Shown piece by piece: positions 6,155 to 9,100 of a DNA stretch of 64,000 bases; positions within the stretch are counted from its first letter, which is position 1, and every line of letters begins with the position of its first letter. A program made the translations under genes and the position numbers. The notes beneath the pieces are model-generated. The model saw nothing but the letters and a program-made list of their open reading frames with translations. It was not told where the DNA came from and searched no databases. This stretch comes from Adineta vaga (taxonomy: Eukaryota > Animalia > Rotifera): assembly GCA_021613535.1 (NCBI GenBank), contig CP075492.1:8197653-8261652 (forward strand), in the 5' to 3' direction.

Positions 6155-9100
6155 TTAATCAACTAACATGCGCGGTGCTATATTCATTGCCATAAGTTCT
6201 TGAAATAGCAATTTACATGCATATGGCAAACGAATCTGTGATATCTAAGAAGAAAAATACGCAGATATTAAATAAACTTGATTTTTCAAAAAACATACTT
6301 GAGTGGTATTTGTACATCCTTTACAATTATATGTCTTTTCGGCAAGATTAGCAACTGCAAGAAGACCACAGATATTGCACACGTGTACTCTGATATGGAT
6401 CTGAGACTTCGAAAAGACGTTCTTTTAGAAATTGTGCAGCACCATGAGAAATTTGACAATCACGTTCCATCTCACCAAAACGAAGACCACCATCACGTGA
6501 TCGACCTTCCATTGGTTGACGATTAAGAATTTGTACAGGACCACGAGCACGTGAATGAATTTTATCATCAACCATATGTTTCAAACGTTGATAACTACGG
6601 AATAAAAAGGATAAAAGTCAAATACCAAACAATTTCATGAAACTTTCTTACTAAGTTGGTCCCAAAAAGATTTGACAATTGAGTTTTCTGCCAGTCATTC
6701 CATTATACATAACTTCATTTCCTCGTAAATGATAACCATATTCTTGTAACATTTCAGACATATGTTTTACGTTAACATTATCATTGAAAGGTGTTGCATC
6801 ACCAATTTCACCTTTATTTGCTGCGACTTTACTTTGTAAGCATTCAATTAAATGTCCAATTGTCATACGAGATGGAATAGCATGAGGATTAATAATCAAA
6901 TCAGGTGTAATACCTTCAACAGTAAATGGCATATCCTAGGGGAACAAGAGAAAATAAATCTTATAGATTTCCATAAAAATAAATCAATGTTTCATTACAA
7001 AGTACCAAATATAAACATAGAAATGAAGTTTATATGGGGCTATGCAATGCATAATTCAATATTTGAGAATTCAGAAACGAAGACAAATAGAAAATCTGTT
7101 TCGCTTTCTTATTCTCAAAACAAGAAAGAACTCATGTATCCGAGAAAAGGTGACTAAATCGATTCGATCAATCGATTAGTGGTTGACAAGGAATTTGTTT
7201 TTCGAGAACAGCCATGACGAATTAAGTAGAATATGACGACTTGATTCATCCATCTTTGTCTCGATTATAATGCTCGAATATAGATTCGAACCAACTAGTC
7301 TTACAATTCTATCAACTAAACTATTCTTTACCTCCATTCGATAGAGTATACCACATGTTCCTTTTTGACCATGACGACTAGCAAATTTATCACCAATTTG
7401 TGGTACTTTTACTGTTCGTACACGAATTTTAACAAATTTATAACCTTCATCGTTGATTGATAAAAGTACCTAAATAGAAAAAAAGTTGTTGTTTTTTTGT
7501 TTTCTATATAATAGATTTTCGAAAGATGGTAAGAATAACTTACTTGATCGACAATACCAGTTTCACTTGCACGCATAAATACACTGGCATCTTTTTTGAG
7601 AAATTTTTTCGTTTTGCTATTTAACTAAAATAGAGCATTTGTGAGACTATATGTATACAAAGCGTTTCTTACTTCATCATCTGTATCTGCTAATGTAACT
7701 GTTTTACCAATAAGAACATCATCACCACTGACACGAATACCAGGTGAAATAATACCATCATCGTCAAGTTTATCATAGATTGCATTACGCATTCCAGCGC
7801 ATGTTGTACGTTGTGGTTTTTCGATGATTTCTTTATGTTGATCACCTTGAGAACTTTCTGATTCACGATAGGAACGCCAGAAAACAGATCGAAAGAAACC
7901 ACGATCAACTGAACTCCAATTGAGAATAATTGAATCTTCTTGATTATAACCTGTATATGAAGCAATAGCAACAATAGCATTAATGCCAGCAGGTAATTCT
8001 CTGAAACGAAGATATTCCATAGCACGAGTAGCAGCCAATGGTTTCTGTGGATAGAATAAAACATGAGCAAGTGTATCCATTCGAATATGAAAATTTGTTA
8101 TATAAACACCCATAGCTTGTTTACCCATAGCTGATTGATATGTATTACGTGGCGATTGATTATGATCAGGAAATGGTACAATACTTGCACAAACACCTAA
8201 GATCATCGATGGATGAATTTCGCAATGTGTATATGTTGAACAATAGGATGATTCGCCTTTCGATTGTAAATCTTCGGGTACCATTGCAATCATACTGGTT
8301 TCTTCTTCAAGACAATCAATAAATTCAACTACGCCTTCTGCAACTAAATTTTGCCATCTATTAAAGAAAAAAGAAAAGAAATGCAATCTTTGATATCTTT
8401 TTTCTTGGAAATCTCTTACCCAAATGTAGTATACTCATGTTTAAGTGCATTGACATGTCGTTGTTTTAATAGAAGTTTTTGTTTTTCTACAATCATCAAT
8501 GGACGACAAATACGTCCTGCATCACTATAAATACGAATTTCACGTTCACGAATTTCTCGAACCATGGAAACTTCATTAACAATAATGTCACATTGACGAC
8601 GTAAACGACGAAGTGTATTCATTAATTGATCAGGATCACGATGTATACCAATCCAACAACCATTAACAAAGATTTTTGCAGCAGTTCGAATACTTGATGG
8701 AGTAATTTCCTCTACGAAATAGCAGAATAAAAACAAAATTTCTGAAGTGAACAAAACTCGTACCCATATTTTCTGTTGACCATTCCTCAAGAAACTCTAA
8801 AATTGGTCCCGGTTGAGATCCAACAGAAATATAAGCCATTAAAGCTAAATTTTTCACTAAACCAACGGCATGCCCTTCAGGCGTTTCGGCGGGACATATC
8901 ATACCCCAGAGAGTATTATGTAATTGACGGGGTTTAGCTAATTTACCATCTCGACCAATCGGCGAATTGACTCGTCGTAAATGTGATAATGTTGACGCAT
9001 AAGTTAATCGATTCAATACTTGACTAACACCAGCTCTGGCTTGATGTGCTTTCTTTTGATCACCCCAATTACCTGTAGCTAAGGAATATTTCAAACCTTG

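Follow-up and report, generated by a model that had tools for sequence, protein, structure and literature searches.

The 64-kb window, that is, the complete stretch of 64,000 nucleotides of Adineta vaga contig CP075492.1 analyzed here, carries on its minus strand a gene for the second-largest subunit of RNA polymerase II, RPB2 (POLR2B). Using conserved peptide anchors, GT..AG splice sites and frame constraints, we delineated this gene from the ATG to the stop codon at positions 6155..10766. It consists of 11 exons (10766-10154, 10096-9975, 9738-9574, 9520-8764, 8711-8420, 8357-7673, 7624-7544, 7469-7332, 6935-6652, 6594-6299 and 6244-6155), and all 10 introns, which range in size from 48 to 396 nt, have GT..AG boundaries. 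The last intron (6245..6298, GTATGT...CTTAG) is 54 nt long, not 55 nt as given in the initial annotation, and is followed by exon 11 (6155..6244), which encodes 29 residues and the TAA stop codon. The window is AT-rich, with a G+C content of ~31%, and both this composition and the short introns agree with the published bdelloid genomes (PMC5916493).

The RPB2 coding sequence as assembled comprises 3523 nt (3n+1), and its sole lesion is a four-base string, CAGA (6389..6392, minus strand), that occupies the place of a single Arg codon. Translation in the unshifted frame proceeds through 14 out-of-frame residues to a premature TAA (6348..6350, minus strand), whereas the remainder of exon 10 (6299..6388, minus strand), which includes the CxxC...CxxC zinc-binding motif (CNIC...CKGC), becomes readable once the frame of the preceding coding sequence is shifted by +1. 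Re-translation of both frames reproduces the break as it had originally been described, on the minus strand immediately before the zinc-binding C-terminal motif and, as had also been stated, outside any homopolymer. A tblastx comparison with the Rotaria magnacalcarata locus agrees: the subject frame is constant, whereas the frame of the window changes from -3 to -1 at 6390/6391. Because the window alone changes frame in this comparison, the break is present in the given sequence and is not an artefact of intron modelling. A tiny or misplaced intron at this site was also considered and rejected, given that the relatives are collinear with the window base for base across the site; a one-base intron is implausible next to the 48-396 nt introns of this gene.

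Deletion of any one of the four bases C, A, G and A (6392, 6391, 6390 and 6389, respectively, on the minus strand) repairs the open reading frame, with removal of the first or second base yielding Arg and removal of the third or fourth yielding Gln. The C of TAT-C-AGA had initially been singled out as the extra base. Its deletion indeed restores the frame, with Arg at this position, but the relatives favor a different assignment: since they read CGA or CGT, an extra A within CGA (window 6391) appears to be the simplest description of the break. Under none of the four corrections does the inserted base copy a neighboring base. Natural one-base insertions typically duplicate the adjacent base as a result of replication slippage, so the extra base in RPB2 does not have the character of a slippage product.

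With one base removed, the gene becomes a single ORF of 1173 codons encoding a protein of 1173 aa, residues 1-1171 of which align with residues 1-1172 of human RPB2 (2120 bits). The corrected protein is much closer to this Pol II subunit than to the second subunits of Pol III and Pol I (806 bits for RPC2 and 393 bits for RPA2). A Pfam scan of the corrected protein recovered all 7 Rpb2 domains in the proper order (PF04563, PF04561, PF04565, PF04566, PF04567, PF00562 and PF04560), every one of them above the curated cut-off and with full or near-full coverage of the profile. In the protein as encoded, Rpb2_7 ends at profile position 35 of 87, with the loss of the zinc-binding CxxC...CxxC.

Protein homology searches with the RPB2 sequence gave bdelloid homologs as the best named matches, with amino-acid identity over the aligned positions of 95.4% for R. 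magnacalcarata (CAF3958176.1), the closest named relative, 90.1% for Rotaria sp. Silwood1 (CAF3719575.1) and 89.4% for Didymodactylos carnosus CAF1521911.1 (89-90% for this species); identity to the proteins found did not exceed 95.4% overall or 90% in the variable N-terminal region. The nearest loci share only ~80% of their nucleotides with the window gene, and dS between the window gene and the R. magnacalcarata locus (L005) is 0.75. These values indicate that, relative to the R. magnacalcarata locus, the window RPB2 is either the gene of another species or an ohnologous copy; the published Ks of bdelloid ohnologues is 0.6-1.3 (PMC5916493). Several distinct RPB2 records exist in the bdelloid relatives.

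At the site of the break, all 8 related bdelloid sequences, which represent at least 6 taxa or copies, read TAT-CGA-GT or TAT-CGT-GT, whereas the window reads TAT-CAGA-GT. The bdelloid relatives share with the window high amino-acid identity and the intron before the last exon, which is in the same position in L002-L006, and differ from it in that the four-base codon is found in the window only. A search of the JGI metagenome contigs with a degenerate pattern that places four bases between DPY and VHVCNICG produced no matches; as a control of the pattern search, the four-base pattern recovered the window and its three-base version recovered four of the fetched relatives. A scan of metagenome contigs for the exact flanks with either a 3-nt or a 4-nt codon at the RPB2 site produced no matches either. 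Likewise, public assemblies yielded no exact match to any of four ORFs of the window, namely that of RPB2 exon 9, the frameshifted one of exon 10, a receptor-like ORF of 393 aa and an NHL ORF.

The gene neighborhood of RPB2 is conserved as well. The order peptidase M2, PAN2, LSM, NDH2, RPB2, Ig-like gene is common to the R. magnacalcarata contig and to two long-read metagenome contigs from other bdelloids (L009, ENA ERZ25070720 ctg110627l; L010, ENA ERZ26165376 ctg349665_13x_l), which are syntenic with the window over 3.3-18.5 kb; the divergent NDH2 neighbor of RPB2 is the same in R. magnacalcarata. Among the well-supported matches between window positions 1-20.5 kb and L010, no break other than that at the RPB2 site was flagged. 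The other metagenome contig, L009, contains in its RPB2 gene at least 5 frame breaks at positions where the window is in frame, as well as an inserted GG at a distance of 40 nt downstream; being itself full of frame breaks, it is unusable as an arbiter. L009 is a clear case of long-read insertion and deletion errors in RPB2. A candidate break in the PAN2-like gene at 15.6 kb, suggested by tblastx against L009 and L010, turned out to be a 50-nt GTAAAA..TTCAG intron.

Several of the public records of bdelloid RPB2 are imperfect. A metatranscriptome contig (JGI 3300030741 Ga0265459_10808896) joins two different spliced RPB2 transcripts of bdelloids head to head in a chimera, in which bases 1-51 match the exon 9/10 junction of the window RPB2 with 100% identity. 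The public RPB2 models of Rotaria sp. Silwood1 (L003, L004 and L006-L008) stop at exon 9 (1050 aa), with the last two exons either assigned to a gene of their own or merged with the downstream NHL gene, and the R. magnacalcarata model omits exon 8 (46 aa). The DNA of both Silwood1 and R. magnacalcarata is in frame at the site.

A non-functional RPB2 paralogue had been listed as one explanation of the break, and the premature stop 14 codons past the shift, along with the loss of the zinc-binding part of Rpb2_7 from the encoded product, is what an old pseudogene could display. The patterns of selective constraint contradict this explanation. In the comparison with the R. magnacalcarata copy, omega is 0.044, far from the values approaching 1 that are expected of a decaying gene; of four bdelloid RPB2 copies, that of the window has accumulated fewer amino-acid changes specific to its lineage than any other (9, compared with 11, 42 and 58), and only 3 of the 9 are at positions conserved in the outgroups. 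Downstream of the break, in the shifted frame, all 30 residues encoded by the remainder of exon 10 are identical to those of R. magnacalcarata, and over the 59 codons through to the end of the gene only 2 residues differ, with pS of 0.63. Retention of 57 of the 59 residues at this level of synonymous divergence implies that the shifted frame has been translated for essentially the whole time since the two genes diverged, which rules out an old pseudogene. The presence of a single lesion in 3.5 kb, the retention of all 10 introns with canonical splice sites, and the preservation of synteny with the NDH2, LSM, PAN2 and Ig-like genes in three other bdelloids point in the same direction, and we accordingly regard an old, non-functional paralogue as highly improbable. 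If real, the extra base would have to be extremely young.

Another way to reconcile an intact downstream frame with the extra base is to assume that the gene truly contains this base and that its effect is avoided during expression, through programmed +1 ribosomal frameshifting or correction at the RNA level. For example, in a Ty3-like shift at CAG-AGU-A within UAU-CAG-AGU-ACA, the A of AGU would be skipped and Gln followed by Val would be read, resulting in ...SDPYQ-VHVC..., the sequence found in human RPB2 and other vertebrates. The known programmed +1 sites include UCC-UGA-U of antizyme and, in yeast, CUU-AGG-C of Ty1 and GCG-AGU-U of Ty3. The RPB2 site resembles these in having one extra base between two conserved frames and, as in Ty3, AGU at the would-be A site, but the resemblance is formal only. 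In contrast to the programmed sites, the RPB2 shift occurs in no orthologue (the extra base is present in 0 of the 8 relatives, and the 4-nt version in none of the JGI metagenome contigs), the site UAU-CAG-AGU lacks both a 0-frame stop and a P-site codon of known slippery or shift-prone character, and the following 102 nt are no more stably folded than shuffled sequences (z = -0.56), so that no stimulatory structure is apparent. Furthermore, the other two frame breaks in the window, described below, are 1-nt deletions, for which the ribosome would have to shift the other way, and both lack a slippery heptamer. To our knowledge, recoding is not used in the RPB2 family. Among the explanations considered, we find recoding the least probable, extremely so.

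Two further one-base frame breaks were detected in the window. The first is in one of two major vault protein (MVP) genes that are arranged tail to tail, copy A at 30450-33600 on the plus strand and copy B at 34259-37417 on the minus strand. Copy A reads ACTTATCGTGTACCACAC (...TYRVPHNA...) within one ORF, whereas copy B reads ACTTATCGT-TACCACAC, with a change of frame at this point; comparison with the paralogue indicates that the G of CGT-GTA is absent (CGT-TA; 35644..35648, at ~35646, minus strand). Both tblastn and tblastx place the frame change in copy B alone and not in copy A. The corrected copy B is otherwise complete, with residues 19-870 aligning with residues 7-856 of the MVP in PDB. 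Copies A and B have the same sequence over approximately 60 nt surrounding the deletion, although their divergence in the vicinity is much greater; gene conversion or strong constraint might account for this identity.

The second additional break is in the first gene of a tandem array of four NHL-repeat genes (44724-49606, plus strand), each of which starts with ...SYNQPKF.... In copy 1, the stretch from RVD to LYCS is 107 nt long compared with 108 nt in all 3 tandem paralogues, which places the missing nucleotide within 45147..45160 (~45150, plus strand); the reading frame changes from 2 to 1 there without the loss of a single residue. A codon-bias scan of the 64-kb window flagged 17 close frame transitions, which were then inspected; 14 of these are ordinary GTA..TAG introns, and two, those in MVP copy B and NHL copy 1, are not. 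Altogether, three isolated frame breaks of one base each, an insertion and two deletions, are present in the window; the affected genes are unrelated to one another and intact in all other respects, and two of them, MVP copy B and NHL copy 1, adjoin a local paralogue. No premature stop caused by substitution was seen in those window genes that were compared with relatives or paralogues, and the window contains no N.

Close to each of the three breaks, only a few bases away, there is a GTAYAC-like string (GTACAC, TACCACAC and GTATAC, around window 6385, 35643 and 45148, respectively). This shared context is probably due to chance, although a systematic base-calling context is possible. Downstream of the NHL array, at 49720-50630, there is a long Ser/Thr-rich low-complexity repeat in which several reading frames of both strands are open and which lies directly upstream of a large multi-exon gene (~50.7-58.8 kb), the 3' ORFs of which appear to resemble a polycystin-type channel.

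Taken together, these observations lead us to favor, with a probability of roughly two in three, the interpretation that the breaks in RPB2, MVP copy B and NHL copy 1 are insertion and deletion errors of the assembly consensus; for RPB2, it is most likely that the break is not biological. Under this interpretation, the true RPB2 sequence would be TAT-CGA-GTA, recorded as TAT-CAGA-GTA with one spurious base inside the Arg codon before the zinc-binding motif, and the locus would be the normal, functional gene of a bdelloid rotifer. The breaks presumably arose during consensus building or polishing, with residual long-read insertion and deletion errors as one possible route and mis-collapse of near-identical haplotypes or copies as another. 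Isolated indels in a gap-free contig, with no other decay of the affected genes, are the signature of residual consensus errors, and frameshifts that are not accompanied by in-frame stops match the indel-rich error profile of long reads. The absence of N over 64 kb fits a long-read assembly, and L009, a long-read contig from a related rotifer, is affected in its RPB2 gene by this problem far more severely. Consensus error is expected to leave isolated one-base breaks in other conserved genes of a contig too, as is the case here, and the error interpretation is supported by these two further breaks and by the finding of the four-base codon in none of the 8 relatives.

Apparent frameshifts of this kind have been described for long-read or collapsed-haplotype assemblies, and errors in long reads are characterized by an excess of indels (PMC8445201; PMC12007338). 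The cases from Trypanosoma brucei Lister 427 (PMC8445201) and from a study of gene-fragmenting errors (PMC12007338) are similar to the present one in that isolated one-base indels truncate intact conserved ORFs, with several breaks per contig, no accompanying substitutions or stops, and no gaps. The present case differs from these in that the error is deduced by sequence comparison and the sites are outside long homopolymers. The location of all three sites outside long homopolymers is an argument against error. Nanopore errors concentrate in long homopolymers. Also counting against error is that three breaks per 64 kb is approximately the load that would be plausible for a highly heterozygous asexual genome, with weak selection on frameshifts in one copy.

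The main competing explanation is that the extra RPB2 base is real and arose very recently as a frameshift in a single haplotype or ohnologue, with the enzyme supplied by an intact copy elsewhere in the degenerate-tetraploid genome, and that the MVP and NHL breaks are likewise young lesions carried by this chromosome copy. Bdelloid genes are generally present in up to 4 copies organized as 2 pairs (PMC5916493; PMC6264785). The dS of 0.75 lies within the range reported for ohnologues (PMC5916493), which makes a second RPB2 locus in the genome plausible, and the several distinct RPB2 records in relatives are compatible with such a locus. With paralogues beside two of the three broken genes and up to four copies of bdelloid genes, real masked lesions would be biologically tolerable. 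The single disabling lesion and the possible backup copies are features shared with young unitary pseudogenes and with heterozygous loss-of-function alleles of polyploid or asexual genomes. Unlike in those, constraint on RPB2 is not measurably relaxed, such that only a lesion of about zero age would fit; since each of the three genes has one lesion and is otherwise free of signs of relaxed constraint, an extremely young age would have to be assumed for every one of these lesions. Moreover, the frameshifts are unaccompanied by nonsense mutations, an insertion that duplicates no neighboring base is unusual for a natural 1-bp insertion, and the lesion appears in no independent sequence, be it the 8 relatives or the JGI metagenome contigs. 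On this balance, a real and masked lesion in RPB2 is a serious but unlikely alternative, and it is similarly doubtful that all three breaks are new loss-of-function lesions on one chromosome copy of an asexual degenerate tetraploid, masked by intact copies. The three options that the initial annotation left unranked, namely error, non-functional paralogue, and true lesion rescued by another copy, can now be ordered: assembly or base-calling error is the best supported of the three, the non-functional paralogue is contradicted by the evidence of constraint, and the rescued lesion, for which the copy number of bdelloid genes leaves room, is the weaker of the two viable candidates.

If, as we favor, the breaks are errors of the consensus, gene predictors will truncate or mis-splice RPB2, a common phylogenetic marker, and at least two other genes of this contig, and the assembly wants polishing before its gene set or pseudogene count can be trusted. 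Our knowledge of RNA polymerase II would be unchanged by either outcome. Should the RPB2 lesion be real, it would illustrate, in a modest way, how an essential gene can carry a masked loss-of-function allele in a polyploid that has long been asexual, and should all three lesions be real, the window would offer a direct view of recessive lesions building up on one haplotype.
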